Virus record (IMG/VR): IMGVR_UViG_3300029720_000017
Direction: 5' to 3' (one strand)
Source: a virus
DNA: 54,276 nucleotides
The position numbers and the translations under genes were made by a program. Under the pieces are notes generated by a model that made no database searches, was not told the DNA's origin, and saw nothing but the letters and a program-made list of their open reading frames with translations. This document shows, in pieces, positions 30,375-54,276 of the stretch (position 1 is its first letter; every line of letters starts with the position of its first letter).

Positions 30375-30882
30375 GCGGATTGTAGAAATCATGAAGGTTC
30401 TTAGAAAACTCGGTATGCACGAAAATCTAATCGGGTTCCTCTATACTGTTACCGCCGTGGATGCCATACTCAATAGTGACCATGTGCTTCGGACCATGGA
30501 AATCTATGAAGCGGTAGAAGAGGCAGTTGGAATCCCTGCCAGCCGAGTGGAACGAAGCATTCGTCACTCGATAAAGACCCTATATGCAACCTCAAAGACA
30601 GTTCGGAATTCCCTAATCTTGGGGACGTCCTGTTGTTCATACAAGGACATCCCTTCCAATTCAACCTTCCTGTCTTCTGTAGCCAACTACATCCGTATGC
30701 AGGAGTATGAGGACACTAACAGAGTCACCTACTATTCCCGGCCTATAAACGCTGATGGAGACCCTGTATTTGCTCCTGACCTTGCGGAAAGGAAGTACGT
30801 AGCTGGATGGGGTGGTGGAGCGGAAACTGGTAGATACTGCCCCAATTTAACGGAGGTGATTACCCGTGATATAGAAGCCTGA
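30361..30882 (+). CDS. Spo0A C-terminal (DNA-binding) domain protein with no receiver domain
   Basis: LGMHENLIGFLYTVTAVDAIL...IYEAVEEAVGIPASRVERSIRHSIKTLY parallels Spo0A-C (HIKGYLYLREAI...ASRVERAIRHAIEVAW). It starts directly at that domain and has a ~60-aa unrelated C-terminal tail. Confidence 0.8.
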   Translation: MEMTKRIVEIMKVLRKLGMHENLIGFLYTVTAVDAILNSDHVLRTMEIYEAVEEAVGIPASRVERSIRHSIKTLYATSKTVRNSLILGTSCCSYKDIPSNSTFLSSVANYIRMQEYEDTNRVTYYSRPINADGDPVFAPDLAERKYVAGWGGGAETGRYCPNLTEVITRDIEA

Positions 30883-35531: not shown

Positions 35532-36004
35532 ATACAAACAGTTGGTTGGATATGGCGGAGATGTACGCTCAGAAGAAGAGCGGTTGTAACAAAGTCGCCG
35601 TAGGTTGTGCCATTGTTAGTCCTGACCGGAGGCAGCTTTTGACTCTGGGAGCAAATCAGGCCATGCCTGACCTGTGCAAGTCGGAGCGTGGCTGTCTGCG
35701 GATGGAGCTCTATGGTGAAGACAGTAAAGCACACCGGAACTCTGGTGATTGCAGAGCCATTCACAGTGAGATTGATGCCATCTCTGGCGCGGCTGAGTGG
35801 GGTGTGTCTCTGCGTGGGGCTATTGCCTTTGTTACTCGGTATCCTTGCGAAAGTTGTGCCAAGGCACTGATTCGTGCCGGTATCAAGGAAGTCTACTATG
35901 GCGGGACTGCTACTGTGAGCGAATATACCAGATACCTGTTCGAGATGTACAAAGTCCGATGCTATCATATTACAGGCTGGCGTGAAGACCTGTCTGACCG
36001 ATAA
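35528..36004 (+). CDS. dCMP deaminase (ComEB/T4 cd-like)
   Basis: HSEIDAI (HxE) and YPCESCAKALIRAGIKEVYY (PCxxC) zinc-deaminase motifs. Confidence 0.8.
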   Translation: MNTNSWLDMAEMYAQKKSGCNKVAVGCAIVSPDRRQLLTLGANQAMPDLCKSERGCLRMELYGEDSKAHRNSGDCRAIHSEIDAISGAAEWGVSLRGAIAFVTRYPCESCAKALIRAGIKEVYYGGTATVSEYTRYLFEMYKVRCYHITGWREDLSDR

Positions 36005-36017
36005 GGAGGAGAATACC

Positions 36018-36521
36018 ATGGCAGATGTAAAGCTAAATCGAGACCAATTGAATGTGCTGGCGAAAGCAAGAATGACCTATGGTGATACTGCACAGATTCT
36101 GGTATCCAATGAGGAGCTCTGTGAGCTGGCTGCGGTATGTGCCAAGTTCCCTCGCTATGAGTCCCCTAACAAGGCTCGAGAAGAGCTCTATGACAAGGCT
36201 GTGGATGAGGTGGCTGACGTCATCATCGTCCTTGACCACATCATCAACATCTTTGGTGTAAAGGACACTGACCTGAGTGCCCGCATCAATGGCAAGATTG
36301 CTCGTTTGACAAACTGGTTGAACAAATCCACCTCTATGGAGCAGACTACCATAGATAGAAACGTCCCTCAGGATGACCCGGAGCAATTATCTCTCTTTGA
36401 GACGATGGGTTGTCCCTGTGTGGGGTGTAGCTACTACAAGAATTTCCTGGAGCTGAAGCTCGGTGGGAAGTGCTATGAGTGCCGAGGAACTGGCAAAAAC
36501 TTCAATCCAAGGGAGGACTAA
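36018..36521 (+). CDS. MazG-like nucleoside triphosphate pyrophosphohydrolase
   Basis: ATG follows AAGGAGGAG. EELCELAA...DEVADVIIVLDHI is the all-alpha MazG EExxE...D pattern. A C-terminal CxxC...CxxC tail is appended. Confidence 0.65.
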   Translation: MADVKLNRDQLNVLAKARMTYGDTAQILVSNEELCELAAVCAKFPRYESPNKAREELYDKAVDEVADVIIVLDHIINIFGVKDTDLSARINGKIARLTNWLNKSTSMEQTTIDRNVPQDDPEQLSLFETMGCPCVGCSYYKNFLELKLGGKCYECRGTGKNFNPRED

Positions 36522-41886: not shown

Positions 41887-41961
41887 GCAGATGTAGCTCA
41901 ATGGTAGAGCATTCGGCTGTTAACCGAAGGGTTGTTGGTTCGAGCCCAACCGTCTGCGCCA
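41887..41961 (+). tRNA. tRNA-Asn: tRNA-Asn (anticodon GUU), CCA encoded
   Basis: Hand-folded cloverleaf. Acceptor GCAGATG/CGTCTGC, D stem GCTC/GAGC, anticodon stem TTCGG/CCGAA with loop CTGTTAA, variable loop GGGTT, T arm GTTGG-TTCGAGC-CCAAC, discriminator G and CCA. Confidence 0.85.
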
Positions 41962-42138
41962 CCGTCGGTACAGCACGACGGCCAATACTCTTTCCCCTAC
42001 TGGAAGCTGTGACCGTAAGTAAGTTCTGACCTCGGTCAGAGAGTACAGCTCACCTGCGTAATCTGGGTGCTCCGAAACCAATCGGCAGGTCTATTTCTAT
42101 GAAGGGAGGAAAGAACCATACATATCAGCTATTCCAGG

Positions 42139-43071
42139 ATGTCCACTTACCTCAACTGTCCTTATCAGCACTGGTTACGATACGTCAGACGGCTGGAGAA
42201 GAAAGCGCCGGAAAGACCTCTGTACTTCGGCACTGATTTCCACAAGCTGCTGGAACTTCGGAACGACCCAGCTGCATTGAAGGAGGCCAAGCAAGTCATC
42301 AAGGATACCTACTACGAGTTACCGGCTTCACAGCAGGGTGTACTCGGTGAGAACTACATTGATGACCTGTTTACCATCTTTAAGGACTATCGACGTCTGT
42401 ACAAGGACGTTCGTCAGCCTCAAGTCACCGAAAAGGAATTCGAGCTGGAAGTTGGACGTATAAACAACGAGCCTATTATCTTTGTTGGGAAGATTGACGA
42501 GCTGTACCTCATGAAGAGACAGGGAGTCAAGTACATCACCATCGGTGAACACAAGACGTTCACCAACAAGCCAAACGCCGAAACCTTGGTTATGAACACA
42601 CAGAAGTGTCTCTACGCAAAGGCGGCGTATCTTTTGAAGGGTGTATTACCTGACAAGGTAAAATGGGATTACATTAAGTCCACTCCAGCGGCTGAGCCGA
42701 TTTGGCTTGAGAAGACAGGACGGTTCAGTGAGGCTACGTCCACCAAAATCACTCCTATGAGCTGGCGGCGAGCCTGTAAGAGTAGAAACATCATTGACCC
42801 AGAAATTCTCCATAAAGGAGACCGATACAAGGACAACATCACAGAGTTCTTCTTCCAAGTTGAGCTCCCCATAGACCCGAAGATGGTGGATATCATCTGG
42901 GATGGGTATCTGTATACCGCCCAGAACATCATCCGTTGCGGGGCTAATAACAAGACTCATAATGTTACCCGGAACTGCTCTTGGTGTAGTTACCATGACA
43001 TCTGTTATGCCGAGATGACCGGGGGTGACGTTGAGTATACTATCGCAAAAGACTTTGTAGAGAAGGAGTGA
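42139..43071 (+). CDS. Cas4/RecB-like PD-(D/E)XK exonuclease with a 4-Cys cluster
   Basis: N-terminal Cys in YLNCPYQHW, GKIDELY...GEHKT (D...ExK) and the C-terminal CSWCSYHDIC. The true start may lie upstream of the ATG (see findings). Confidence 0.75.
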   Translation: MSTYLNCPYQHWLRYVRRLEKKAPERPLYFGTDFHKLLELRNDPAALKEAKQVIKDTYYELPASQQGVLGENYIDDLFTIFKDYRRLYKDVRQPQVTEKEFELEVGRINNEPIIFVGKIDELYLMKRQGVKYITIGEHKTFTNKPNAETLVMNTQKCLYAKAAYLLKGVLPDKVKWDYIKSTPAAEPIWLEKTGRFSEATSTKITPMSWRRACKSRNIIDPEILHKGDRYKDNITEFFFQVELPIDPKMVDIIWDGYLYTAQNIIRCGANNKTHNVTRNCSWCSYHDICYAEMTGGDVEYTIAKDFVEKE

Positions 43072-43075
43072 TTCC

Positions 43076-43813
43076 ATGGGTCTATTAGACTCCGCTGTCG
43101 ACATCCACGAACTCGGTCAACGTAATTTCTGGGTGCTGTACGGCAAATCCAACAGCGGCAAGACGTATGTCGCATCCACATTCCCCAAGCCCCTGCTGTA
43201 TGTACAGATAGGTGATGATGGCTCCAACACGATTGCTCATGTGGATGGTATAAAGGCCATCTCCATTGAGAATGTGGAGCAGTTCAAAACACTCTGTGAA
43301 GAGCTCAAGAAAGACAAGAAGTACGCAACCATTGTTGTTGATACATTTTCCATGGTGGTCAACGAATGGGTGCAGCAGAAGGTCACTACCAAGGGCAAGA
43401 AGATGACTCAGCAGCTCTGGGGCGACCTGAAGACCGAACAGGAGGAGCTCATCAAGTCCCTTCATCGGTTAGCAAAGAAGCACATTGTCGTGGCTACCTG
43501 CCATGAGAGCATGGATGCAATCGAGGGTATGGAGGACGAGATTACCCCGGACATCCGTCCGTCTGTGTCCAAGGGTGCTCGTACCTACCTTGAGGGCATG
43601 GCTAACTACGGTATCCACACAACTAAAATCGTCAAGGAAGTCACCAAGGGTAACGAGACCAAGGAAGTTGTCAAGTATGCAGCCGACATCGGTCCCAATC
43701 CTTACTACTGGACCAAGCTCCAGATTGACCCGAGTGTCAAAGTTCCCAAGCGTATCATCAATCCGACCTACGACAAGTTCATGGAAGTCATTGGGTCGGT
43801 TGACAATAACTAA
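43076..43813 (+). CDS. Sak4-like RecA-fold ATPase (AAA_24)
   Basis: Walker A GKSNSGKT and Walker B IVVDTFS. It lies between a nuclease and a DUF669 gene, as in many phage recombination modules. Confidence 0.7.
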   Translation: MGLLDSAVDIHELGQRNFWVLYGKSNSGKTYVASTFPKPLLYVQIGDDGSNTIAHVDGIKAISIENVEQFKTLCEELKKDKKYATIVVDTFSMVVNEWVQQKVTTKGKKMTQQLWGDLKTEQEELIKSLHRLAKKHIVVATCHESMDAIEGMEDEITPDIRPSVSKGARTYLEGMANYGIHTTKIVKEVTKGNETKEVVKYAADIGPNPYYWTKLQIDPSVKVPKRIINPTYDKFMEVIGSVDNN

Positions 43814-43830
43814 TTTTGGAGGTACCTACT

Positions 43831-44505
43831 ATGAGCAGAAGAATGAAAGTCGATATGACCGGTGTTGAGAGTTACTCTCGTTGCCCGGAGGGTCAGTTCC
43901 CCGCCAAGCTGGTCAAGCTGGAAGAATGCAGCATTCAGGGTTCTGGTGACGATGGTCTCAAGGCCAAGTTTAAAGTCACCAGTGGTTCTGGCAAGGGCAG
44001 TAACGTCTTTGAGACCTTCTCTCTGGCCGAAAAGGCTCTGTGGAAGCTGAAGATGATGCTGGAGGCCATGGGTATGAAGGCTGTCGGCAAGATGACCCTT
44101 GATTTGGACAAGCTGGAGGGCAAGTCCGTCGGTATCGAGGTCGTCCATGATGAGTACAATGGCCGTAAACAGGCCAAGATTGCTCAGTACCTCAAGCTGA
44201 GCGAGCTGGAGGATACTGAGGCCGATGAGGATGATGAGGACGATGACGATGAAGATGAGGATGAGGAGCCGGTGAAGAAGCCCGCCAAGAAAGCTCCCAC
44301 CAAGAAGTCCAAGAAGCAGCCCGAGCCTGAGGATGACGACGAGGACGAAGATGAGGATGACGATGATGAGGACGAGGAAGAGGAAAAGCCCGCCCCCAAG
44401 AAGTCCTCTAAGAAAGCTCCTGCCAAGGCTTCCAAAAAGACCAGCAAGAAGTCCAAAAAGGACGAAGACGATGACGAGGACGACTGGGAGGACGATGAGG
44501 ACTAA
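43831..44505 (+). CDS. DUF669-type (SSB-like) protein with a long polyampholyte tail
   Basis: ATG follows GGAGGT. The N-terminal ~120 aa are DUF669-like. The tail alternates D/E runs with KKPAKKAPTKKSKK blocks and ends DDWEDDED. Confidence 0.65.
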   Translation: MSRRMKVDMTGVESYSRCPEGQFPAKLVKLEECSIQGSGDDGLKAKFKVTSGSGKGSNVFETFSLAEKALWKLKMMLEAMGMKAVGKMTLDLDKLEGKSVGIEVVHDEYNGRKQAKIAQYLKLSELEDTEADEDDEDDDDEDEDEEPVKKPAKKAPTKKSKKQPEPEDDDEDEDEDDDDEDEEEEKPAPKKSSKKAPAKASKKTSKKSKKDEDDDEDDWEDDED

Positions 44506-44563
44506 TCCCATCTGACTTCTACCGGGGGAGGGGTGACCCTCCCCCAATACAAGGAGGAACACT

Positions 44564-44905
44564 ATGGACAAGATTACAATCCATTCCGAGCTTTGCACAG
44601 AGATGCATGCCCTGTACAAGCACAAAAATGCTGACTACGGAGATAGCTTTGCTCGGCTCCGAAAGCGTTACCCGAACTTTGTGTGTATGCGGCTGTTTGA
44701 CAAGCTCAACCGTCTGGACACCATCATCCAGCCGGGGTATGAGTGTAAGGTGTCTGACGAGAAAATTGAGGACACCCTGATGGATATCGCCAACTATGCT
44801 ATCATGGAGCTGACTGAGCGTAGAGCTGAACGCCCTTTCGCTGAAGAAGTGATGAGACGAGCTCGTAATAGCGAGCCTGTGGTCATCAAGAACACCGATA
44901 TCTGA
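44564..44905 (+). CDS. DUF1599 / nucleotide-modification-associated domain 1 protein
   Basis: KHKNADYGDSF....MRLFDKLNRL is the DUF1599 pattern. It lies directly upstream of the ThyA homologue. Confidence 0.65.
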   Translation: MDKITIHSELCTEMHALYKHKNADYGDSFARLRKRYPNFVCMRLFDKLNRLDTIIQPGYECKVSDEKIEDTLMDIANYAIMELTERRAERPFAEEVMRRARNSEPVVIKNTDI

Positions 44906-44918
44906 TAGGAGGAAAATC

Positions 44919-45635
44919 ATGGCTGTAACTGTATTCAATGCAAAAACCGTAAACGAGGCTTGGGAACAGGCTTTCGAGGCTCTGAAGGCTCAGGCCAATG
45001 AGGGCTTCAATGATACCTCTCGCGATGGAGGGGTTGTGGGTGAGATTACCGATGCAGTCTTCTGCATTGAAGACCCCACTCGCAACATCGTGACCAGTCC
45101 CATTCGCAAGATGCCTATGCGCTATGCCGTGGGCGAGCTTGCATGGTATCTATCTGGCTCCAACAAGGCTTCCGACATCGGTCGCTTTGCTAAGAAGTGG
45201 CTGGAAATTTCTGACGACGGCGAGACCAACAACTCCGCGTATGGTTATCGTATTTTCACAAAGTTCGGCTTTGACCAGTGGAAGCACGTCAAGAACATGC
45301 TGCAGAAAGACCCCAACTCCCGTCAGGCAGTTATCCACATCAAGGACGCTGATAACAAACTTACCAAGGATACCCCATGCACGGTCTATCTGCAGTTCTT
45401 CATTCGGAATGGCAAGCTGAATCTCTCTGTTCACATGCGCTCCAATGACATCTGGATGGGTGTACCCTATGACATGTTCAGTTTCTGTTTCCTGCAGATG
45501 AAGATGGCTATGGAGCTGGGGGTTGAGATTGGTGAGTATCATCATTATGCCGGTTCTTTGCACATGTATGCTCGGGACTGGGAAGCCGCCAAGAAGAACA
45601 TGGGTGAGGTCTGCTGTACTGAGCTGAAGAGGTGA
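44919..45635 (+). CDS. thymidylate-synthase-fold pyrimidine C5 transferase, probably dCMP-specific (hydroxymethylase or methylase)
   Basis: PCTVYLQFFIRNGKLNLSVHMRSNDIWMGVPYDMFSF aligns residue by residue with E. coli ThyA [37 protein letters not shown]. An Asp replaces the specificity-determining Asn. Confidence 0.75.
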   Translation: MAVTVFNAKTVNEAWEQAFEALKAQANEGFNDTSRDGGVVGEITDAVFCIEDPTRNIVTSPIRKMPMRYAVGELAWYLSGSNKASDIGRFAKKWLEISDDGETNNSAYGYRIFTKFGFDQWKHVKNMLQKDPNSRQAVIHIKDADNKLTKDTPCTVYLQFFIRNGKLNLSVHMRSNDIWMGVPYDMFSFCFLQMKMAMELGVEIGEYHHYAGSLHMYARDWEAAKKNMGEVCCTELKR

Positions 45636-45639
45636 CCTG

Positions 45640-46014
45640 ATGTCATACAACAGGATTACCAAGGGACCAGAGCTCATTAAAGTGATGGTCAAAATCCTTG
45701 ACGAGAACAAGGACATACTGGTATGGGACCATTTCTGTTACGCGCCCAAAGACCTGTACCTCAAGTTCTTGGAAAACCGGGGCATTGAGCGATTCGAGAT
45801 GGCAGAGTACCTCCAGCGTTGGTGCCTGTTGGACTTCAACTGTGATTTGCCTATGACCAGAGCGCAAGACATAACCGTGCTCAAGGAACTGATACTGGAC
45901 AAGTACTCCAAAATCTTCCCTTACCTGTCTCGTCCGAGCAAGACAGACCGGCAAGGGTGGATTAGAGTGTGGCTGTCCGAACACATGGAAAGAGAAATGA
46001 GGAAAAAGAAATGA
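45640..46014 (+). CDS. hypothetical protein
   Basis: GAGGTGA RBS, 124 aa, no motif I can name. Confidence 0.55.
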   Translation: MSYNRITKGPELIKVMVKILDENKDILVWDHFCYAPKDLYLKFLENRGIERFEMAEYLQRWCLLDFNCDLPMTRAQDITVLKELILDKYSKIFPYLSRPSKTDRQGWIRVWLSEHMEREMRKKK

Positions 46015-46397
46015 TTGACAAGAGTACCTACAATGAGGGTGCCCTGTTCCCTCAGATTGCTGCTGTGGACTTTGATGGTCTGCTGGTGGAGAACAAGTTT
46101 CCCGAGATTGGTGAAATTCGTCAGCCGATGTTCAATGCCGTAAAGTGCCTCCAGGAAAACGGCTGGAAAATCATCCTGTGGAGCTGCCGTACCGGGGATA
46201 TGCTGAAGGACGCTGTGGAGTTCTGTGTTCAGCACGGTCTCGTTCCTGATGCTGTGAATGAAAACCTCAAGGAAGTTCAAGAATACTTCGGCGGCGATAC
46301 TCGTAAGGTCTTTGCCAACATGTACTTGGATGACCGGAGTGCAAATTACCGGAGCGACCTTGGAGTATTCGCAACTATCCCACCGGAGACTCTGTAA
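46011..46397 (+). CDS. HAD-superfamily phosphatase-like protein
   Basis: ATG at 46011 with an ATGA overlap. AAVDFDGLL is a DxDx(T/V/L)-type motif I. Small capless fold size. Confidence 0.5.
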   Translation: MIDKSTYNEGALFPQIAAVDFDGLLVENKFPEIGEIRQPMFNAVKCLQENGWKIILWSCRTGDMLKDAVEFCVQHGLVPDAVNENLKEVQEYFGGDTRKVFANMYLDDRSANYRSDLGVFATIPPETL

Positions 46398-46399
46398 TC

Positions 46400-46753
46400 A
46401 TGAAAGAGAGCAGCTTTCAGAGCAGAGCACTCCAGTACCTCAACTCCATACCGGGGTGCAGGGCTGAGAACGTTTCTGGTAATGCTATGCAGTCCGGTAG
46501 ACCCGACATCAACGGCTGCTACTGTGGCCGTATGTTCAAGCTGGAACTGAAGGTTCCTGACCACAAGAATGTAGCCACCAAGAAACAGGAACTGGAGCTC
46601 CAGAAGTGGGCAGCTGCGGGTGCTGTTGTGGGTGTTATCTACTCTATGGAGTCTCTCAAGAAATTCATGGAGTGCTTAGAGCACCCTGTTTACCCTGTCC
46701 GTGAGAAACGGTTCAAAGAGGAGAATGGTTGTGAGTCTTGGTTCAAGCTCTAA
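46400..46753 (+). CDS. VRR-NUC domain nuclease
   Basis: GRPDINGCY...FKLELK (D...ExK), with an SNF2 helicase immediately downstream as is usual for phage VRR-NUC. Confidence 0.7.
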   Translation: MKESSFQSRALQYLNSIPGCRAENVSGNAMQSGRPDINGCYCGRMFKLELKVPDHKNVATKKQELELQKWAAAGAVVGVIYSMESLKKFMECLEHPVYPVREKRFKEENGCESWFKL

Positions 46754-48155
46754 CTTCATACTCAAGACCAAGCCTTGGGCACACCAGCTCAAGGCTCTTG
46801 AGTATCTATACCCTCGGGACGCTGCTGCTCTGTATACCAAACCGGGCAGCGGCAAAACCAAAATCATGATTGACCTCATTGTCAACCGAGGGTTCAAGCG
46901 TGTATTAGTAGTAGCTCCTAAAAAGCCCTGTGAAGTGTGGAAGCCTCAGATACAGCTACACTCTGACATCCCGCCGGAAAACATACATGAATTGTATTCT
47001 CTCAGCGGGAAGAAGAAGGCTGAGCTGCTAAAGACCTTCAAGACTGTACAACCGGGCGAGGGCTGCTCCATCTTCATCTGTAACTATGATTCCGTCTGGC
47101 AAAAGCCTGTTGATAAAGTCTGGTTCTACAAGAAGCTGGGAATTGACTGCGTTATCTGCGATGAGAGTCACCGCATCAAGTCTCCATCAAGCAAGTGTTC
47201 CTGTTTCCTTGCTCGTCTCGGAAAGGTTGTTCCGCATCGGTATCTACTGACCGGTACACCGCTGGCTGAAAATCCTATGGATGTGTATGCTCAGTACAGA
47301 TTCCTTGACCGGTCTATCTATGGTACCAACTACCGAGCATTCTGTGAGCAGTACCAGAATATTGACATCAACCTGAGTGCTCGTGTTGGCTTTCCAATTC
47401 TGGACAAGAAGCAGCCTTATAAAAACCTTGATGACCTCAAGGAGAAGATGTTCAGTTGCGCTTTCTATATGAACTCTACGGTCAAGCTCCCAAAAACGAC
47501 CAGAATGGTTGTCAAGATACCCATGCCCGCCGGATTGGAGTACTTGTACAAGGAGCTTGATAAAGAAGGTGCTCTGGAGATGGAAGAGGGCTTCTTGACC
47601 GTGAACAATGCTCTGTCCATGGTCATACGGAAACAGCAGGTAACAAGTGGGTATCTCCCTCTGGAACGAGATGATGGTACAACCGAGCTCAAGCGTATCA
47701 GTACATATAGGCGTACATTTTTATACAAGTTCCTCAAGCAGTTACCGGAGTCAGAGCCTGTTGTCATCTTTGCGAAGTTCCAAAAAGACCTGTATTCTAT
47801 CCGCAAGGTCGCAGAACGTCTTGGTTGCGGGTATTCAGAGGTGTCTGGCCGGGAAAATACCCTCAGGGACTGGAAGTCTGGAAAGACCCGAGTTCTGGGT
47901 GTACAGTATACAGCAGGGTCAGAGAGTATTGACCTCACTCGTGCTCATCTCTGTATATTCTACACCCTTGACCACTCTTTGGGGAAGTATGAGCAAGCGC
48001 GGGCACGAGTACATAGACCGGGTCAAGAGAGCCCATGCATTTACTACCACTTCACCGCTGTGATGTCTTCCGGTCGGACGGTTGACCAAGACATTGTACA
48101 ATGTTGGAAAGACAAGAAAAATTACATAGACCTTATCATGAGAGGAGCCTTGTAA
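46725..48155 (+). CDS. SNF2-family helicase
   Basis: Contains PWAHQLKALEYL, GSGKT, DESHRIK and a C-terminal helicase domain. The start is ATG 46725 or GTG 46731; the latter has better RBS spacing. Confidence 0.85.
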   Translation: MVVSLGSSSNFILKTKPWAHQLKALEYLYPRDAAALYTKPGSGKTKIMIDLIVNRGFKRVLVVAPKKPCEVWKPQIQLHSDIPPENIHELYSLSGKKKAELLKTFKTVQPGEGCSIFICNYDSVWQKPVDKVWFYKKLGIDCVICDESHRIKSPSSKCSCFLARLGKVVPHRYLLTGTPLAENPMDVYAQYRFLDRSIYGTNYRAFCEQYQNIDINLSARVGFPILDKKQPYKNLDDLKEKMFSCAFYMNSTVKLPKTTRMVVKIPMPAGLEYLYKELDKEGALEMEEGFLTVNNALSMVIRKQQVTSGYLPLERDDGTTELKRISTYRRTFLYKFLKQLPESEPVVIFAKFQKDLYSIRKVAERLGCGYSEVSGRENTLRDWKSGKTRVLGVQYTAGSESIDLTRAHLCIFYTLDHSLGKYEQARARVHRPGQESPCIYYHFTAVMSSGRTVDQDIVQCWKDKKNYIDLIMRGAL

Positions 48156-48177
48156 ATACAGGGTTCCTCTTTATTTT
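48141..48177 (+). terminator. intrinsic terminator overlapping the SNF2 stop codon
   Basis: Stem agaggagcc/gggttcctct (9 bp, one G-U pair) followed by ttatttt. Confidence 0.6.
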
Positions 48178-48209
48178 GAAAATTTTCTCAAAATTTTTGT
48201 AAAAAGTGC

Positions 48210-48238
48210 TTTACTTTTCCAAAAGATAGAGTTATAAT
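48210..48238 (+). promoter_or_regulatory. promoter P5 (TTTACT-N17-TATAAT)
   Basis: TTTACT at 48210 and TATAAT at 48233. Upstream A/T tracts. Confidence 0.75.
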
Positions 48239-48286
48239 TGTATCATAAATTAAATCAACCCCCTCAATTCTGAAAGGAGCTCTACA

Positions 48287-48685
48287 ATGAAAAACGATAT
48301 GATTAAAATCACCTGCATCGATGGCACTAACTTCCTGACTTCTCTGGATTACACCACTGAAAAGATGACTGAGCTGATTGATGAGTCCAGCAAACAGATG
48401 CCGGAAAGAAAGCTGTCCTACAAAGTATTCAAGTCCGGCGAGATGCCTCTGGAGGAGCTGCCCGAACTGATTCAGACTCAAGTCAAATCCGTTCTTCGTG
48501 CGTATCCCCGCTGCACGGTGACTTATGAATATGGCAAGTTCTCCGTCAGCGCCGGTTGCTGTATCAAGAATCACTACAACTTTGACCACTATGTGGCTGG
48601 GACTTACTGGGACAGCGATGTCTACACCCTCGAGGAGCGTCGGCAGAACTACAAAGAAGAGTTCGGATATGCACCTTGCTTCTAA
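48287..48685 (+). CDS. hypothetical protein
   Basis: RBS context tctgaaaggagctctacaATG. First gene after the promoter at 48210. Confidence 0.6.
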   Translation: MKNDMIKITCIDGTNFLTSLDYTTEKMTELIDESSKQMPERKLSYKVFKSGEMPLEELPELIQTQVKSVLRAYPRCTVTYEYGKFSVSAGCCIKNHYNFDHYVAGTYWDSDVYTLEERRQNYKEEFGYAPCF

Positions 48686-48787
48686 GCTGTACCAAGATGT
48701 TTCTGATATGGAAATTCGCTTTTGGAAATACACTATTTAGAAGAAAGCGAGCAGAACTACATTGAAGAACTTTAAGGAGGTAACACC

Positions 48788-49675
48788 ATGAAAGAGTACA
48801 CCGTCAAGAACAATGATTTCACCGAATTCGACATCAATCCTGACCTGACCTTGGACAGAGTTGACCGTAATGGTACCCACTACTACACCAATAACCGTTG
48901 CCCCAAGTGCGGCGGAGAGAAGTACATCTCCTATTACACCCATGTTGACGGCGGTGTTTGCTTCCTCTGCGGCGGTACTGGTGTTCATCCCACCAAGGTG
49001 GTCGTCAGAACCGAAGAGTACGCCGCCAAGCTGGATGCCAAGCGTCTGGAGAAAGCTCGCAAGACTGCTGGAGCTCGGAATGCCGAGTACCTTCATCGTC
49101 AAGGCTTCAACGCCGATGGTATGACTTGGGTAGTCATGGGTGAGACCTATTCTCGCAAGGACGAGCTGAAGGCCGCTGGTTGTAAGTGGAGTCCTGAGTT
49201 CGGCTGGCACTTTGACCACGAGACCGAGCAGTTTGACACGGTTGTAGTGACCATCCGTACCATGATTCCGTACTTTGAGGACGAGAATGGTCAGCCTTGC
49301 ACTTCCGCTATCGGTCAGTACTCCGTTGACGGAACTCTGTATTTCCTCCGCTCCGAGTTCATTATGGACTACATGAAGTCCCTCCGCGAACAGTACATCG
49401 CTGACCACGCTCCTAAGACCGAGCATTTCGGTAACGTGGGTGATAAGGTGGAGCGAGAGGTCAAGCTCGTTCGTCGCGCTGGGTTCGACACTATGTGGGG
49501 AACGACCTTTGTGTACACCTTTGTGGACTCCGATGGTCATCAGTTCATCTGGAAGACTGGCTGTTACCTTGACCAGTCTGAGGGCAGCACCCTCACCGTC
49601 CGGGGTACGATTAAAGCCCACTCCGAGTACCGGGGTGCGCGGCAAACTGAGCTCACCCGGTGCCGAGTCGCGTAA
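48788..49675 (+). CDS. DnaJ-type zinc-finger (CxxCGG x2) protein with an OB-like C-terminal domain
   Basis: Contains CPKCGGEK and CFLCGGTG. The C-terminus FGNVGDKVEREVKL...LTVRGTIKAHSEYRGARQTELTRCRV is OB-fold-like. Last gene of the plus block. Confidence 0.6.
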   Translation: MKEYTVKNNDFTEFDINPDLTLDRVDRNGTHYYTNNRCPKCGGEKYISYYTHVDGGVCFLCGGTGVHPTKVVVRTEEYAAKLDAKRLEKARKTAGARNAEYLHRQGFNADGMTWVVMGETYSRKDELKAAGCKWSPEFGWHFDHETEQFDTVVVTIRTMIPYFEDENGQPCTSAIGQYSVDGTLYFLRSEFIMDYMKSLREQYIADHAPKTEHFGNVGDKVEREVKLVRRAGFDTMWGTTFVYTFVDSDGHQFIWKTGCYLDQSEGSTLTVRGTIKAHSEYRGARQTELTRCRVA

Positions 49676-49784
49676 ATCTCGTTCTTCCGAATTCCTCTCA
49701 TCCTATTTCGAGTCCGAGAGGAAGGGGGTGGTAAACTACTACCCCCGATTTCGGAGGACGCCTCGAGGATTTTAGACCAAAGAA

Positions 49785-49810
49785 ACTCCCCCACCACACG
49801 GCGGGGGAGT
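49785..49810. terminator. bidirectional terminator between the convergent blocks
   Basis: Stem actccccc/gggggagt (8 bp). T-rich on both strands after the stem. Confidence 0.65.
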
Positions 49811-49950
49811 ACTTTATTGAACACCATGGGGTGGCAGGGGGACAATTCGGTGCTCCTCCTCGCTCCACACGAACATCTCCGTACCGGGCTGCACCGTACA
49901 GACAGGAGCGTACTTGTTAGGTGATACCCTCACGAAGAGCTGTGGAGGGT

Positions 49951-50556
49951 TCAGCACAGAATCTTTCCTACATCCTTGCACTTTTCCTCATACCTCTCAT
50001 GATATTCTTCCTGAAGCATACCAACGTAACCGAAGTCATAGTCAGCAGCTTTCAGTTCAATGCAGAGTCGTTCCAGATACTTCAGCTCCAAGTCCACGTC
50101 GCACACGAGGCAATTGATTTCGTTGAAGTCGGCTACACAACCCCAGTCAAGCAGCATTCTCGCGCTTTTCTCATACAGGGCTTTGGTATCCGTCTCCCAC
50201 TCCTTGTACTGCTCCATGGCTCTCTGCACGGCCTGTTTCCTCACCGCAGGGGTGACGGCCATACGATTGTACTGGTACCAGTCATAGGGGATGATGTCAA
50301 CTGGCTCCACGTCCTCGTTGGGAAGCAGCATGCCATGATGGTTGATGTAGTACCGCTTGAGTTTGCGGTGCATACAGGACTCCTCCAGATACTGGTACTC
50401 GTGCATCCGTTTGAAGCCTCTCAGACCAAGAAAATCGAAGAGGTCAGCCATGTCGTTGTGGAACATGAGAGCTAAGACCTGACGGGAGTTTACCGCAGTG
50501 AACAGTTCTTTGACATCCTTGGGACTGTACTCTGCAATAGACAGTTTTCCGTTCAT
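49951..50556 (-). CDS. ferritin-like four-helix-bundle protein
   Basis: ALMFHNDMADLFDFLGLRGFKRMHEYQYLEESCMHRKLKRYYI resembles ferritin helix A/B (..GF....Q..EE..H..K). AGGAGG RBS. Confidence 0.45.
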   Translation of the reverse strand: MNGKLSIAEYSPKDVKELFTAVNSRQVLALMFHNDMADLFDFLGLRGFKRMHEYQYLEESCMHRKLKRYYINHHGMLLPNEDVEPVDIIPYDWYQYNRMAVTPAVRKQAVQRAMEQYKEWETDTKALYEKSARMLLDWGCVADFNEINCLVCDVDLELKYLERLCIELKAADYDFGYVGMLQEEYHERYEEKCKDVGKILC

Positions 50557-50753
50557 ACTTGTCCTCCTTCCAGCTTGCTGAGCAGCAGGTCAATCTTCTC
50601 ATCTTGAATGGAAAGGTGTTTATGGATGTCGTCAACCGCAGCTTGGACGGCCTTACTCATCGTACTTTGGTCAACGTTTTCACCATAGTTGGCTACACCA
50701 ATTAGAAACGAGATGATTGCCAGTGCATCAAGCAAAGTCAACTGTTCTTTCAT
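50553..50753 (-). CDS. small protein with an N-terminal hydrophobic helix plus coiled-coil
   Basis: ATGA coupling at both ends. Sequence LLDALAIISFLIGVANY, then a helical region. Confidence 0.5.
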   Translation of the reverse strand: MKEQLTLLDALAIISFLIGVANYGENVDQSTMSKAVQAAVDDIHKHLSIQDEKIDLLLSKLEGGQV

Positions 50754-51178
50754 TCCTTGACCACTTCCATAGCGACGTTCATGGTGTTGACGGTCTGGCT
50801 GTTTACATAGATGCTCAGGATACTTTCACCCTGACCGCAGAATACACGTACCGGGGCTGTGAAGCCGAAGTTGACGATACCGTTCTCAGCCGCAGAAGAG
50901 GTCTGAACTGCACCGGGCACCAAGTTACCATCCTGATACAGAGAGACAGTAATCTGACCTTCAGCAGAAGCTGTCAGAGTCGCGTTAACGCTCACGGTGT
51001 AGTAACCAGCAGCCCTCTCGTTGCTGTCGCAGCAACCCGCATTCTTCAGCACGACCGTGTTGTTTCTCAGCCGAATGCAGCGTCCAAACTGACGAGTAGT
51101 GTTGGTCAGAGGCAGGATGTTACCCGCCTGAACTTCTTGTACACCTGTAAAAGTGTAGTAACCGAGAGATTTAGCCAT
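50750..51178 (-). CDS. C1q/TNF-like (BclA C-terminal-domain-like) jelly-roll protein
   Basis: Pattern AGNILPLTNTTRQFG.CIRL..NTVVLKNAG.YTVSVNATL...ITVSLYQDGNLVPGA...ILSIYV resembles BclA-CTD-type beta sandwiches. No collagen repeats. Strong RBS. Confidence 0.4.
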   Translation of the reverse strand: MAKSLGYYTFTGVQEVQAGNILPLTNTTRQFGRCIRLRNNTVVLKNAGCCDSNERAAGYYTVSVNATLTASAEGQITVSLYQDGNLVPGAVQTSSAAENGIVNFGFTAPVRVFCGQGESILSIYVNSQTVNTMNVAMEVVKE

Positions 51179-51206
51179 TGTATTGTACCTCCTTTATAAT
51201 GAAATA

Positions 51207-51232
51207 GGCGGGGCAGCTATTGCCACCCCGCC
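51207..51232 (-). terminator. hairpin (attenuator or terminator) inside the six-gene module
   Basis: Stem ggcgggg/ccccgcc. On the minus strand it is followed by tatttcatt. Confidence 0.5.
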
Positions 51233-51271
51233 AGAGTTCCTCGCCAAACAGGGCGTATTAACAGGATTTAC

Positions 51272-51934
51272 TTAGACCGCGGGAGAATACGAACAACCAC
51301 AGGTGTTGGCCGTATAGGGAGAGCAGGTGATGTACGCAGGACGCGCTACCGGCTGAAGCCGGTTGACCAGATACATGTTCTGGAGCAGCTGGCTGTTCTC
51401 GAACTTACTGTCCTGCAGCTTGTCACGCAGCTCCTGGATGGTGTTAGCGGTCATCATAGCGCGGGTCGCATCACCATCAGCCTTGATTGCATTGACGATG
51501 TCACAGGTGTTGCGAGCGTTCTCGTACTTGACGGAGTCAATGTTACGATTGGTCTCGCAGCAGCAGCTCTGCTGAGCGAACCGATTGTCAGAGAAGCCCT
51601 GAGCAATCTGGCTCTGCAGACTGTTCATGCCCTGAAGCATGGTAGTGTTCATGGCGTAGAAGCCATCACACAGACCATTGGACAGGCCACGTACACCGTT
51701 CTGCAGGTCGTTGAAGTTGAAGTCCTGGCACAAGTCAGCTCTGGTCAGAGCACCCTGAGCAGCCGCGCCGTTGCCGAAGCCGAAGCCACCGCCACCCCAC
51801 GCCAGCAGGAAGAACAGGAAGAAGACCCACACCCAAGTGCCACCGGCACCTCCAAACATGCTACCGTCGGTGTTGCGATTCTGGAGAGCCATGACATCAG
51901 CCACGGACATCCCACTACCAGTTTCCATACCCAT
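51272..51934 (-). CDS. membrane protein with a Gly-flanked TM segment and conserved Cys motifs
   Basis: Contains GGAGGTWVWVFFLFFLLAWGGGGFGFG (YjcZ-like), then LCQDFNFNDL, LCDGFYAMN, SCCCETN and a C-terminal CSPYTANTCGC. Confidence 0.6.
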   Translation of the reverse strand: MGMETGSGMSVADVMALQNRNTDGSMFGGAGGTWVWVFFLFFLLAWGGGGFGFGNGAAAQGALTRADLCQDFNFNDLQNGVRGLSNGLCDGFYAMNTTMLQGMNSLQSQIAQGFSDNRFAQQSCCCETNRNIDSVKYENARNTCDIVNAIKADGDATRAMMTANTIQELRDKLQDSKFENSQLLQNMYLVNRLQPVARPAYITCSPYTANTCGCSYSPAV

Positions 51935-51963
51935 TGTAGATACCTCCTTGTTAAAATTTTATC

Positions 51964-52179
51964 TCAACCCAGCGGGAACTGGGATTGAAACTGAGCCCAC
52001 ATCTGGTCAAAGTCCAGACCTCTCTGCTTACAGAGATTCATACAGGTCTGCTTGAGCTGCTCCGGGGATTTACCCTGAGCCATCTGCTGTGCCTGACGGA
52101 ACATAGGATTAGAGCCAAACTGCTTGGACATAAAGGACATGGGATTCATCATAGCACCCATCATCTGGAACGGATTCAC
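51964..52179 (-). CDS. small Met/Gln-rich protein
   Basis: GTG start 8 nt after AGGAGGG, with a GTGA overlap. Sequence MNPFQMMGAMMNPMSFMSKQFG... Confidence 0.5.
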   Translation of the reverse strand: MNPFQMMGAMMNPMSFMSKQFGSNPMFRQAQQMAQGKSPEQLKQTCMNLCKQRGLDFDQMWAQFQSQFPLG

Positions 52180-52643
52180 TGTTTATTCCCTCCTTTCAGC
52201 TTCTGCTCAATCTTAGAGAGCTTTTCCGTCAGCCCCTGTACCGCTGCATTAAAGTCCTCCTCCCGGACGTATCCTGACAGGTCAACGGTCTGCGGAGAGG
52301 CCTCGACGGGCTTTGCTACCGGGGTGTCTACACTGTACCGCTGGAAGATGATGTTGCCATCAAGACCGAGCTGCTTAGTGTAGATTTTGCCATGCGCCTT
52401 GTCAGGGAACACAAACAGAGACCCATCGAAGTCAATCATGGCGGCATTGGCCTCCTCCTCGTTGGATACCGGTCTACCCTTGAGGATAGGAGCCGCAGGG
52501 GTCTGAGGCTGCTGAGGCGGTTGCTGAGGGAAACTGTTACCCATCTGAGGGTACTGAGCCTCCATCATCTGAAGCCTCTGCTGAGCGCTTTGCATGGCCG
52601 GATTGTTGTACGGATAGGGAGTCATAGGTGCCATAGGATACAT
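52176..52643 (-). CDS. Pro/Gln-rich protein, hypothetical
   Basis: AGGAGGT RBS. The N-terminal P/Q/M-rich ~55 aa are followed by a globular part and a C-terminal coiled-coil. First gene of the six-gene module. Confidence 0.6.
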   Translation of the reverse strand: MYPMAPMTPYPYNNPAMQSAQQRLQMMEAQYPQMGNSFPQQPPQQPQTPAAPILKGRPVSNEEEANAAMIDFDGSLFVFPDKAHGKIYTKQLGLDGNIIFQRYSVDTPVAKPVEASPQTVDLSGYVREEDFNAAVQGLTEKLSKIEQKLKGGNKQ

Positions 52644-52677
52644 AGAAATTACCTCCTGTCTGGTATATTCTACCTCT

Positions 52678-52740
52678 ATTATACCTCGTCTGAATTGGCA
52701 GGAGTATACTAAAAGTATTCGTCAAGAATACTAAAAGTAT
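52678..52740 (-). promoter_or_regulatory. promoter lacking a -35 (TATAAT only), with two ATACTAAAAGTAT palindromes upstream
   Basis: attata at 52678-52683. At the -35 position the sequence reads TACTCC. Palindrome cores lie at 52706-52718 and 52728-52740. Confidence 0.55.
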
Positions 52741-52751
52741 AATTTTGGGCA

Positions 52752-52785
52752 TAAAAAGAACACCACCCTGTATAGAGTGGTGTTC
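52752..52785 (-). terminator. intrinsic terminator after the sigma-like gene
   Basis: Stem gaacaccac/gtggtgttc (9 bp) followed on the minus strand by TTTTTAT. Confidence 0.7.
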
Positions 52786-52790
52786 CTTAT

Positions 52791-53021
52791 TTAGAAAAGT
52801 TTGGACAGCTTGGAGAGAGCTTTGACGTGTCTTTTCTTGATTGTGATTTCCGCATATCCAAGTGTATCACCGATGTAGCGGAAGTCCTTGCCTTTGAGGT
52901 AGTGGAGCCTCAATATCTCCTTGTCCTCATCCGATAGGGTGGATTCGTTCAACAGGTCATCGAAGCGTCTCACACTTGGGATAGCCTCAAGGCGTTTCCT
53001 TGTATCAAGGTGAGTGCTCAA
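52791..53021 (-). CDS. sigma-70 region-4-like HTH protein (76 aa), candidate transcription regulator
   Basis: TTG start 6 nt after AAGGGGTG. LSDEDKEILRLHYLKGKDFRYIGDTLGYAEITIKKRHVKALSKL is a region 4.2-type HTH. Confidence 0.65.
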   Translation of the reverse strand: MSTHLDTRKRLEAIPSVRRFDDLLNESTLSDEDKEILRLHYLKGKDFRYIGDTLGYAEITIKKRHVKALSKLSKLF

Positions 53022-53103
53022 TCAAAACACCCCTTACTTGTACCGGCCACAGGTGGGGCAGCGACTCTGTCCCTTACCTGTACTCTTGCCTCCGATACCT
53101 GTT

Positions 53104-53520
53104 TTACCCGAGGGACTCGACTTCGTCACTGAGGCTCCCTTGCTCGGGCTGTATGTTCTGGTTCTCGTTGTTGTCACTGTTATGGTCTGCTTCGCCATAG
53201 TTTACCTCCTCAGAATTGCCTTGGACGTATTTGGCACTCTCACCAGATTGGAAAACGTTGTTACCGCTACCCTCTCCGGTGTCTTGCTCAACTGTCGTTG
53301 TAACCGTTTCAGTTGTGGTCATGTTCTTCTCGTACTGCACAAATATGATGCAGATAACGAGGTTGACCAGTATACTGACGATGAGAATCAACCGCAGCCA
53401 GAAGTCCTCGCGCCGCTTTGATTCCAGCATGGTCATCACGATGTGGTTGAGAGCTATGCTTTGGTCAAGGGCGTCTTCTTCAGTCTTCATGGTTTCCAAG
53501 TCCTGGATAGGAATGTCCAT
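53104..53520 (-). CDS. XhlA-like membrane protein with a long hydrophilic tail
   Basis: ATG at 53520 lies 9 nt after AGGAG. A helical N-terminus is followed by FWLRLILIVSILVNLVICIIF, comparable to XhlA ..W.LRLI.. plus TM. Confidence 0.45.
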   Translation of the reverse strand: MDIPIQDLETMKTEEDALDQSIALNHIVMTMLESKRREDFWLRLILIVSILVNLVICIIFVQYEKNMTTTETVTTTVEQDTGEGSGNNVFQSGESAKYVQGNSEEVNYGEADHNSDNNENQNIQPEQGSLSDEVESLG

Positions 53521-53833
53521 GCATTTCAACTCCTGTCTGTTTGATATAGTTCAGAATCTCAATGAGTACATCGTGCGTATTGTTGAGGTCACTGAGATTG
53601 TGGAACAGCGTTTTAATCTGCTCTTCATGAGAGTTGACCAAAAGGGCGAGGCTCTGCTGGCTGTTCTTTATCTCTTTGACATCGGTTTTCAACTCTGCAA
53701 TACCGGCTACTGCTTGATTGAGCTTTTGTACGACCTCGCCGTCGGCTTTGGCACGGCTGTTCATACCCACAACAAAGGTTGCAATACCAATCACACAGGC
53801 AATGATACTACAGATGAACAAAGTTGTCTCCAT
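53480..53833 (-). CDS. N-terminally anchored coiled-coil protein with an XhlA-like motif
   Basis: TM segment LFICSIIACVIGIATFVVG, then ELKTDVKEIKNSQQSL (compare XhlA ELKNDVKEIKDDL). AAAGGAGGA RBS. Confidence 0.45.
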   Translation of the reverse strand: METTLFICSIIACVIGIATFVVGMNSRAKADGEVVQKLNQAVAGIAELKTDVKEIKNSQQSLALLVNSHEEQIKTLFHNLSDLNNTHDVLIEILNYIKQTGVEMHGHSYPGLGNHED

Positions 53834-53865
53834 AGGTATTGTCCTCCTTTCTTCAGTTTTACCCT

Positions 53866-53894
53866 ATTATACTCCTCTGAAACGGAAAAGTAAA
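53866..53894 (-). promoter_or_regulatory. promoter for the XhlA-like/sigma-like unit (TTTACT-N17-TATAAT)
   Basis: agtaaa at 53889-53894 and attata at 53866-53871. Confidence 0.7.
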
Positions 53895-53918
53895 GGGGAA
53901 TTTTCGCTTTGGAAAGGA

Positions 53919-54101
53919 TTACAGTGGGGACATTTCGTTAGGCTTTTCAGTGGAGTACACTTCTCCTATAAGAGAAGACAGCTCCGTGTACTGGTCGTCC
54001 GTGATGCGCCCCACGGCGTAAAACACGTCGCACTTCTGCTGTGCCTCTTCACGGGTCTTGTAAAACCGCTTGTTGATGAGCTTCGTCATAATGTTATACA
54101 T
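53919..54101 (-). CDS. XkdX-like small protein
   Basis: 60 aa. DVFYAVGRITDDQYTELSSLI resembles the XkdX family (..G.IT.EEY..IT). It follows gene 7-273 across the junction. Confidence 0.45.
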   Translation of the reverse strand: MYNIMTKLINKRFYKTREEAQQKCDVFYAVGRITDDQYTELSSLIGEVYSTEKPNEMSPL

Positions 54102-54110
54102 AGTCGTTCT

Positions 54111-54276
54111 CCTTTCTTAACCGATAGTGTCCATATCCGCCTGATAGATGGTTTCCACAGCCTCGCCCAGCTGCTGCGTCAGGCTGTCTATCTCGTTGTT
54201 GGCTTCCTCCAGTGCCGTCAGCACCTCTTTGCCGTCACGGTAGAACTTGCCCTCCGTGTACGTGTCACCCATGCCC
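54111..54276. repeat. terminal overlap copy 2, identical to 1-166
   Basis: Same as copy 1. It duplicates the 3' 160 nt of the CDS at 7-273. Confidence 0.95.

Follow-up and report, generated by a model that had tools for sequence, protein, structure and literature searches.

A ThyA-fold protein with the active-site signature of dCMP hydroxymethylases in a phage genome without close cultured relatives

Results

The 54,276-nucleotide phage genome IMGVR_UViG_3300029720_000017 from IMG/VR (the window, by which we mean this whole stretch of DNA) encodes a protein of the thymidylate synthase (ThyA) fold in the open reading frame (ORF) 44919-45635. This protein is probably a deoxycytidylate (dCMP) hydroxymethylase (deoxycytidylate 5-hydroxymethyltransferase) that would feed 5-hydroxymethylcytosine (5hmC) into the phage DNA, a prediction made from sequence. 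The analysis shows the fold, the catalytic residues, a seven-residue diagnostic signature, the conservation of the protein and its gene context. The enzyme would be an addition to the phage dCMP hydroxymethylases, a functional class already known; its clade, from phages of Firmicutes, is not orthologous to T4 gp42. A search of the window for a second ThyA-fold gene was negative, so that this gene is the only one.

Active-site residues of the ThyA-fold protein

The protein was aligned with E. coli ThyA and T4 gp42 (both full-length and verified against the PDB, the gp42 reference agreeing 100% with PDB 1b49), a fragment of the CMP 5-hydroxymethylase MilA taken from its PDB-match alignment, the dCMP methylase of Xanthomonas phage XP12, an RB69-like enzyme, the deoxyuridylate (dUMP) hydroxymethylase of SP10, SPO1-like and ViI-like homologues, and the closest phage homologues. 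Phage p000y was dropped as a "T4-like gp42" control, given its RB69-type D169N signature, and true T4 gp42 was used instead. The alignment to E. coli ThyA runs without gaps from PC(H/T) through P(F/Y)(N/D), and N177 of E. coli corresponds to D185 of the window protein (codon GAC, 45471-45473), which bears out the gapless alignment and the Asn-to-Asp change (PYD) noted in a preliminary description of this DNA. The catalytic Cys (C154; C146 in E. coli), Glu, Arg and His/Tyr are all retained. The key residues of the window protein are E73, R135 (E. coli R126), D151 (L143), C154, T155 (H147), S175 (S167), D177 (D169), D185 and H215/Y217.

Table 1. Residues at the seven diagnostic positions (E. coli ThyA numbering)
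Protein	143	146	147	167	168	169	177	Other feature
E. coli ThyA	L	C	H	S	C	D	N	
Window protein	D	C	T	S	N	D	D	
T4 gp42	D	C	T	S	N	D	D	
MilA	D	C	T	A	N	D	D	
RB69-like	E	C	T	S	Q	N	D	
SP10 / SPO1-like	D	C	N	S	N	D	N	
ViI-like	D	C	N	S	Q	D	N	
XP12	N	C	P	S	S	D	D	ThyA-like C-terminal segment

As revealed in Table 1, all seven diagnostic residues of the window protein are those of the T4 dCMP hydroxymethylase gp42; in the comparison with gp42, SPO1, XP12 and ThyA enzymes that the preliminary description had proposed, made here with an SPO1-like homologue, the signature equals that of gp42 and differs from the rest. Several of these positions have a documented meaning. Asn or Asp at 177 corresponds to a uracil or a cytosine substrate, respectively; when an association study of metaviromes compared unmodified with cytosine-modified contigs, this position told them apart best (PMC8670742). 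Work cited in PMC8670742 and PMC13326640 has established that the swaps N177D and D179N switch specificity. The change of Leu143 to an acidic residue (L143D/E) correlates with a hydroxymethyl instead of a methyl product, and D169N is the mark of the newly found flavin-dependent 5-hydroxy-dCMP synthases (PMC13326640). Ser167 and Arg126 go with a deoxyribo substrate, and Ala and Lys with a ribo substrate (PMC5175136).

Thymidylate synthases (EC 2.1.1.45) carry Asn177, the hydrophobic Leu143 and His147, where the window protein has Asp185, Asp151 and Thr155. They also have a C-terminal segment that folds over the folate for the transfer of hydride: the window protein ends ∼20 residues past H215-x-Y217, whereas ThyA runs ∼55 residues past H207-x-Y209, and the NCBIfam thymidylate synthase equivalog models scored 79-85 bits against cut-offs of 108-327, so that all of them failed. 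The marks of a dCMP hydroxymethylase are present: Asp at 177 (D185), the residue for recognition of cytosine N3/N4, an acidic residue at 143 (D151) and a retained Asp169 (D177). With S175 and R135 the pocket is of the deoxyribose type, as opposed to the Ala and Lys of the CMP-specific MilA.

Relatives, structure matches and phylogeny

The best match among solved structures was MilA (PDB 5b6d; 4.3e-32, 114.7 bits), and thymidylate synthases reached at most 74 bits (∼1e-19). MilA, from Streptomyces rimofaciens, has the same Asp177, Asp143 and Thr147, but its Ala176 and Lys133 favour ribose; in the window protein these two are Ser and Arg, the residues of deoxy-specific enzymes. MilA works in antibiotic biosynthesis, not in DNA modification. 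Asp at 177 and the catalytic Cys were found in 44 of 44 homologues from related metagenomic loci, down to 43% identity; from this it can be deduced that the Asp is selected and is not a sequencing error.

In a bootstrapped neighbour-joining tree the window protein grouped with a homologue from an Agathobaculum phage (support 100), then with those of Enterococcus phage VPE25 and Lactobacillus phage ATCCB (76) and of the metagenomic contig L038 (81). This clade belongs to a hydroxymethylase supergroup (100) that also holds the dUMP enzymes; ThyA and XP12 fall outside it. A place within bona fide ThyA, which the preliminary description had named as evidence against its own reading, was not found, the tree separating the enzyme from ThyA. 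The claim made there of a cytosine-specific ThyA-fold enzyme, and not a thymidylate synthase, is supported at the level of sequence by Asp177, the gp42 signature, MilA as best match, the failure of the equivalog models and the grouping with VPE25.

The closest cultured homologue, that of the Agathobaculum phage, is 56% identical and carries the Asp and the cytosine signature. The VPE25 homologue is 40% identical, has the same signature and is the only ThyA-fold gene of VPE25/VFW, whose DNA is resistant to bisulfite and MspI and sensitive to PvuRts1I, a behaviour like that of glucosyl-5hmC (PMC4999554). The cytosine modification found by experiment in VPE25 is independent support for the assignment. 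The window enzyme and those of VPE25/VFW and ATCCB are alike in identity (∼40-48%), signature, tree clade and Firmicutes siphophage background. Unlike the window, VPE25 and ATCCB have a T4-like beta-glucosyltransferase adjoining the homologue and lack HMUDK_hel, TAGT and the 124-amino acid ORF u124 (Table 2); DUF1599 was not detected in the regions of these phages that were examined. With T4 gp42 (EC 2.1.2.8; PDB 1b49/1b5e) the window protein shares the ThyA fold, the seven diagnostic residues and the short C-terminus, and in both genomes an all-alpha nucleoside triphosphate (NTP) pyrophosphatase-type enzyme, a dCMP deaminase and a DNA glycosyltransferase accompany the hydroxymethylase. The window differs from T4 in having no gp1-type deoxynucleoside monophosphate (dNMP) kinase, in a glycosyltransferase of the TAGT/GT-A type instead of an alpha- or beta-glucosyltransferase, and in an HMUDK_hel gene, of which T4 has none.

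The enzyme family is represented in metagenomes by 1829 homologues (E-value ≤1e-10) on phage contigs of ∼50 kb. Given this abundance on metagenomic phage contigs, chemistry of the hydroxymethylcytosine type would extend to common, likely Firmicutes, gut phages.

Genomic context

On the plus strand the phage genome carries a block of genes for replication and nucleotide metabolism; structural and packaging genes, e.g. GP3_package, occupy the minus strand at ∼277-24015 and 49951-54276. A megablast search of positions 42000-50000 against cultured phages gave no match, and the genome is without a close cultured relative.

Table 2. Genes of the two modification-related blocks of the window
Feature	Coordinates	Strand	Length (amino acids)	Match or motif
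HD-domain phosphohydrolase-like protein	32506-33102	+		phrog_28876 metal-dependent phosphohydrolase, 4.5e-26; Pfam HD weak, 0.012
HMUDK_hel protein ("aG/PT-PPlase1")	33081-34133	+		Pfam PF18723, 2.8e-66
Variable membrane-anchored ORF, between HMUDK_hel and TAGT	34114-34716		200	
TAGT-family (GT-A, DxD) DNA glycosyltransferase	34713-35531	+		Pfam TAGT, 1.2e-11
dCMP deaminase	35528-36004	+		Pfam dCMP_cyt_deam_1, 1.2e-15; phrog_174, 4.3e-29
MazG-like all-alpha NTP pyrophosphatase, candidate dCTPase	35982-36521	+		phrog_2245 NTP pyrophosphohydrolase, 7.8e-10
DUF1599 / nucleotide-modification-associated domain 1 (NMAD1) protein	44564-44905	+	113	Pfam PF07659, 6.4e-10
ThyA-fold pyrimidine hydroxymethylase, predicted dCMP hydroxymethylase	44919-45635	+	238	Pfam PF00303 Thymidylat_synt, 9.2e-28
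u124, conserved ORF	45640-46014	+	124	no family match
Small capless HAD-type phosphatase	46011-46397	+	128 (from ATG 46011)	DFDG motif; PDB 2obb, 1.6e-18

The hydroxymethylase gene is one of four tightly packed plus-strand ORFs in 44564-46397 (Table 2). The sequence AGGAGG, a strong ribosome-binding site, precedes both the DUF1599 gene and the ThyA-fold gene; 4 nucleotides separate the ThyA-fold stop from the u124 start, and the u124 stop overlaps the start of the HAD gene (ATGA). The preliminary description had placed the enzyme between DUF1599 and a HAD phosphatase: DUF1599 does lie upstream, but the HAD gene is not directly adjacent, with u124 in between. The "aGPT-like", MazG-like and dCMP deaminase genes that it mentioned are all present in the window.

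These three genes belong to a second modification block, ∼9-12 kb upstream of the ThyA-fold gene, in which the HD gene overlaps the start of the HMUDK_hel gene. The TAGT protein also matches phrog_842, beta-glucosyl-HMC-alpha-glucosyltransferase (5.2e-13). A profile of relatives of the MazG-like protein weakly matches B. subtilis YpjD (0.005), with conserved EExxE / DExxD motifs; by analogy with T4 gp56, the protein may be specific for dCTP.

The Pfam name of the 33081-34133 protein, "HMUDK_hel, 5-hmdU DNA kinase helical domain", is misleading for this stand-alone protein. A role as 5-hmdU DNA kinase was rejected, as it has no Walker A/P-loop and no kinase domain. Its homologues are ViI gp160 (Vi01 orf00160) and PhiW-14 gp72, listed as aG/PT-PPlase1 (PMC5889632 Table 3), a class of Lee et al. 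2018; the kinases gp67 and gp37 are not homologous to it. When diverse members were aligned, a CE..KY motif proved invariant, and its Cys-Glu pair resembles the essential Cys/Glu of the aGPT-Pplase2 transferases.

No P-loop 5-HMUDK kinase, aGPT-Pplase2, pyridoxal phosphate or radical S-adenosylmethionine enzyme was found in the window, nor a homologue of the kinases of L038 or of Microbacterium phage Golden; Walker A motifs occur only in the primase, Sak4, ORF 19323-20897 and ORFs of the structural region. Dihydrofolate reductase (DHFR) was not found among the window ORFs scanned. The thymidine-hypermodification systems of ViI, M6, PhiW-14 and SP10 have three components in common with the window: the dCMP deaminase, the ThyA-fold hydroxymethylase and the HMUDK_hel/"aG/PT-PPlase1" homologue, which is 35-46% identical to ViI gp160. 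The window differs in that its hydroxymethylase is of the cytosine type and in that a TAGT glycosyltransferase stands in place of 5-HMUDK/aGPT-Pplase2.

Conservation of the modules and partners of HMUDK_hel

Synteny was compared over ∼45 IMG/VR contigs, in which two modules can be told apart. The deaminase, the MazG-like protein, the hydroxymethylase and the HAD protein are retained throughout, u124 in nearly all, and the deaminase adjoins MazG in every relative. HD, HMUDK_hel and TAGT form a dispensable unit: TAGT is present in most but not all relatives, some HMUDK_hel-bearing relatives have no TAGT or HD, and a subgroup (L055/56/57/60/61) lacks both HMUDK_hel and TAGT and keeps the Asp-type enzyme, the deaminase and MazG. 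HD accompanies HMUDK_hel in the closer relatives and is absent from several of the more distant HMUDK_hel loci, L079, L081, L082, L084, L086, L090 and L112; L055, which is without HMUDK_hel, has an HD protein at 43% identity.

An Asp-type partner of HMUDK_hel recurs in the whole window family, in L038 and in Golden. In the divergent phage L038 (IMGVR_UViG_3300045988_153490; 16985-20650 and 10004-11573) a cluster holds a 316-amino acid ORF, a protein of the PF18748 5-hmdU-DNA-kinase family (7.7e-13), a TAGT, a thymidylate-kinase-like protein and an Asp-type hydroxymethylase with the signature D-C-T-S-N-D-D, and other parts of the locus hold HMUDK_hel and a dCMP deaminase; the cytosine-type enzyme of this cluster adjoins a "thymine" DNA kinase. 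Golden combines HMUDK_hel with an Asp-type ThyA-fold gene and a P-loop nucleotide kinase 3. In Brevibacterium phage LuckyBarnes (L066 4801-8816), an Asn-type ThyA-fold protein of 517 amino acids is followed by two TAGT genes and HMUDK_hel; this uracil-type counterpart of the window module suggests a glycosylated 5-hydroxymethyluracil (5hmU).

Discussion

Proposed pathway

From the residues and the gene context we infer the substrate, the product, the extent of replacement and all post-replicative steps. In the proposed pathway, dCTP would be converted to dCMP by the MazG-like protein, possibly also by DUF1599. C154 would attack C6 of dCMP, and the methylene of 5,10-methylene-tetrahydrofolate (THF) would go to C5; water, admitted by D151 (L143 in ThyA), and not hydride, would then resolve the exocyclic methylene to give 5-hydroxymethyl-dCMP (5-hm-dCMP) and THF. 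Cytosine would be selected by D185, and deoxyribose by S175 and R135. Host kinases, or as yet unassigned phage kinases, would raise 5-hm-dCMP to the triphosphate, and the phage PolA would incorporate it. The 5hmC in DNA is probably glycosylated by the TAGT-type transferase (34713-35531), with HMUDK_hel and HD as putative accessory or alternative post-replicative enzymes. The dCMP deaminase would supply dUMP for host synthesis of dTMP, as Cd does in T4.

It is conceivable, although we hold it doubtful, that the Asp-type hydroxymethylase, HMUDK_hel, HD and TAGT together make up a cytosine counterpart of thymidine hypermodification. The product would be a novel hypermodified base derived from 5hmC, distinct from the glucosyl, arabinosyl and carbamoyl forms already known. 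HMUDK_hel could then act on 5hmC in DNA, or a member of the "5-hmdU DNA kinase" family, like that of L038, could phosphorylate 5hmC; both routes are possible. A literature search on HMUDK acting on 5hmC returned nothing relevant. The occurrence of the same module with an Asn-type enzyme in LuckyBarnes implies that the post-replicative toolkit is not tied to one base, and that a single Asn/Asp switch in the hydroxymethylase sets its target.

Evidence against the assignment, and alternative explanations

Several observations weigh against a dCMP hydroxymethylase that supplies 5hmC. T4 gp42 groups with the enzyme of Golden elsewhere in the tree and is not sister to the window protein; the similarity between the two is <60 bits, outside the best 60 PDB matches and below the scores to ThyA entries, so that orthology does not hold. 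As the window enzyme and gp42 are not monophyletic, function is deduced from residues that converged or were retained, not from orthology. A dNMP kinase that could phosphorylate 5-hm-dCMP was not found in the window; T4 relies on gp1 for this step. The homologue of the Agathobaculum phage is named dUMP (deoxyuridylate) hydroxymethyltransferase in GenBank, without a reference. The characterised relatives of HMUDK_hel come from thymidine-hypermodifying phages (ViI, PhiW-14, SP10), and in a broad sample of HMUDK_hel loci the adjacent ThyA-fold gene codes for Asn177 in 36 of the 37 classifiable cases, L038 being the sole Asp-type.

The site counts point in the same direction. Over the whole window GATC was observed 2 times against 188 expected, and CTAG 0 times against 65 expected, which suggests that sites containing C in this DNA remain open to restriction. 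The close relatives compared (L039, L040, L043, L044, L055, L057, L060 and L112) differ sharply: L039 is normal for both sites, L043 purges both, L040 purges only CTAG, and GATC is purged in L112, L055 and L057. Such strain-specific purging looks like the signature of ongoing restriction pressure despite DNA-modification genes; it suggests that the modification is partial, depends on context or gives no protection from the enzymes concerned, and weighs against full replacement of cytosine. The use of site statistics to discriminate between C and T modification was rejected, since GATC and CTAG contain both bases.

The association of HMUDK_hel with uracil-type partners would be accounted for by a re-ordered thymidine-hypermodification pathway, in which 5-hm-dCMP is an intermediate that the phage deaminase converts to 5-hm-dUMP, and the resulting 5hmU in DNA is hypermodified by HMUDK_hel and TAGT. 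T-even dCMP deaminases have been reported to accept 5-substituted dCMP, a deaminase stands beside MazG in every relative, and L038 joins a PF18748 kinase-family protein, a TAGT, a thymidylate-kinase-like protein and a deaminase to an Asp-type hydroxymethylase. We nevertheless consider this route unlikely. Relatives without HMUDK_hel and TAGT still keep the Asp-type enzyme, the deaminase and MazG, from which it follows that the pre-replicative module works alone; a dCMP deaminase is also found in bona fide hydroxymethylcytosine phages such as T4, and in Bacillus phage G; relatives of TAGT and phrog_842 are enzymes directed at hydroxymethylcytosine; and no function that would exclude dTTP was identified. 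The LuckyBarnes locus suggests that the module follows whichever base the hydroxymethylase supplies, and the presence of TAGT and HMUDK_hel beside enzymes of both base types weakens, without removing, the case for 5hmU that rests on HMUDK_hel. If the enzyme were instead a dUMP hydroxymethylase of the SPO1 gp29 / SP10 type despite its Asp, the GenBank name, the HMUDK_hel association and the shared supergroup with dUMP enzymes would be explained. However, such enzymes have Asn177, usually with Asn147: Asn177 was found in all representatives examined (SP10, SPO1-like and ViI-like) and in 36 metagenomic dUMP-type enzymes, most of them also with Asn147. The Asp and Thr of the window protein, taken with the established N177D / D179N switches, make this reading very improbable.

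Among cytosine-directed activities, the preliminary description had left the product as 5-hydroxymethyl- or 5-methyl-dCMP. That claim can be narrowed to hydroxymethyl. A dCMP methyltransferase of the XP12 type would also carry Asp177, and XP12 has a HAD hydrolase and a dCMP deaminase alongside. Yet the XP12 enzyme lies outside the hydroxymethylase supergroup, has Asn and Pro at 143 and 147 and a ThyA-like C-terminal segment, and is partnered by a DHFR. We favour hydroxymethyl over methyl because position 143 of the window protein is acidic (with Thr at 147) and a C-terminal segment of the ThyA/XP12 type is absent, the ORFs scanned include no DHFR, and the window has a glycosyltransferase, which needs a hydroxyl; methylation is accordingly less probable still than the dUMP activity. 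The least probable of the activities weighed is a flavin-dependent 5-hydroxy-dCMP synthase of the RB69 gp48 / DLP3 gp80 type. Such enzymes share Asp177 and the acidic 143, and glycosyltransferases accompany them as well (PMC13326640), but their D169N is absent: the window protein keeps D177, where the RB69-like control, phage p000y, has Asn.

Annotation and significance

For this fold, database names such as "thymidylate synthase", "dUMP hydroxymethyltransferase" or "ThyX" are no reliable guide, and the seven-residue signature sorts the known activities. Probable misannotations include Golden (L065, NC_042117; 1353-1958 and 4944-5750), where the "ThyX thymidylate synthase" gp47 has the ThyA fold and is of the Asp type, and gp55, named "terminase small subunit", matches P-loop nucleotide kinase 3; the "deoxyuridylate hydroxymethyltransferase" of the Agathobaculum phage, with its cytosine signature; and the "deoxycytidylate 5-hydroxymethyltransferase" of phage p000y, which has the D169N signature of 5-hydroxy-dCMP synthases. 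The last two cases concern the loci L001 3838-4500 and L004 259-975.

ThyA homologues of the cytosine type offer an entry point to anti-restriction DNA hypermodification. HMUDK_hel has so far been tied to thymine hypermodification, and its occurrence with HD and TAGT without a kinase is an unstudied variant. The pairing of HMUDK_hel with a cytosine-type enzyme provides an experimental handle on its role, and on whether kinase/transferase hypermodification reaches cytosine.

Flanking genes and other observations

The DUF1599 protein scored 39.7 bits against a Pfam cut-off of 25. Its AlphaFold2 model is a four-helix bundle (pLDDT 81.9), for which Foldseek found no significant match in the PDB; the top-ranked non-significant fold matches include the all-alpha NTP pyrophosphatases AF_0060 (E 0.15), HisE domains, DCTPP1 and YpjD, and in BFVD the matches are other NMAD1 proteins only. 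No sequence relatives were found in the PDB by phmmer or by profile, hhalign detected no relation to the MazG-like protein, and a literature search on DUF1599 returned nothing relevant. The fold matches give a hint of a putative nucleotide-binding or NTPase-like role. DUF1599 is missing from some relatives that retain the hydroxymethylase. The u124 protein has no match in Pfam, PHROG or NCBIfam, and its single-sequence AlphaFold2 model (pLDDT 48.7) was too poor for a fold search; in nearly all relatives its gene comes immediately after that of the hydroxymethylase, also where the HMUDK_hel/TAGT module is missing.

The start of the HAD gene was set at ATG 46011, as called in a contig of 95% identity, with GTG 45969 as an alternative. 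The protein matches NCBIfam NF046079 (BT0820-family HAD phosphatase) at 1.9e-25 and 89.8 bits, below the equivalog cut-off of 165 bits, and no Pfam HAD family at cut-off. Homologues adjoin a uracil-type hydroxymethylase in Bacillus phage YungSlug and a cytosine-type enzyme in Lactobacillus phage ATCCB; the HAD gene was therefore rejected as a discriminator between the C and U pathways, as homologues accompany both types. In XP12 (L068 44377-46980) the HAD hydrolase, the Asp-type ThyA-fold methylase, the dCMP deaminase and DHFR are consecutive, and a HAD gene beside a ThyA-fold enzyme recurs in 5-methylcytosine, 5hmC-type and 5hmU-type phages.

In the upstream block, the MazG-like protein has a Cys-rich, zinc-ribbon-like C-terminal tail (CPCVGC...CYEC) that is variable or absent in relatives. 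The ORF 34114-34716 has an N-terminal transmembrane helix and no Pfam match and occurs only in some relatives; judged by eye alone, the C-terminal region is similar to cell-wall hydrolases of the SleB/CwlJ type.

With regard to the host, a protein like the Spo0A C-terminal domain (30361-30882; 2.4e-17) hints at Firmicutes. Among 185,579 species-representative genomes the sole match was L149 (JAZNNW010000016.1, 53.6 kb), a contig the size of an entire phage, with a hydroxymethylase 80% identical, binned into a metagenome-assembled genome of "Candidatus Avilachnospira sp.", a weak hint of a Lachnospiraceae host. The window also carries a single tRNA-Asn(GTT) at 41887-41961, and a DUF4417 protein (22625-23299, minus strand; 3.3e-49) adjoins a small-terminase-like gene.

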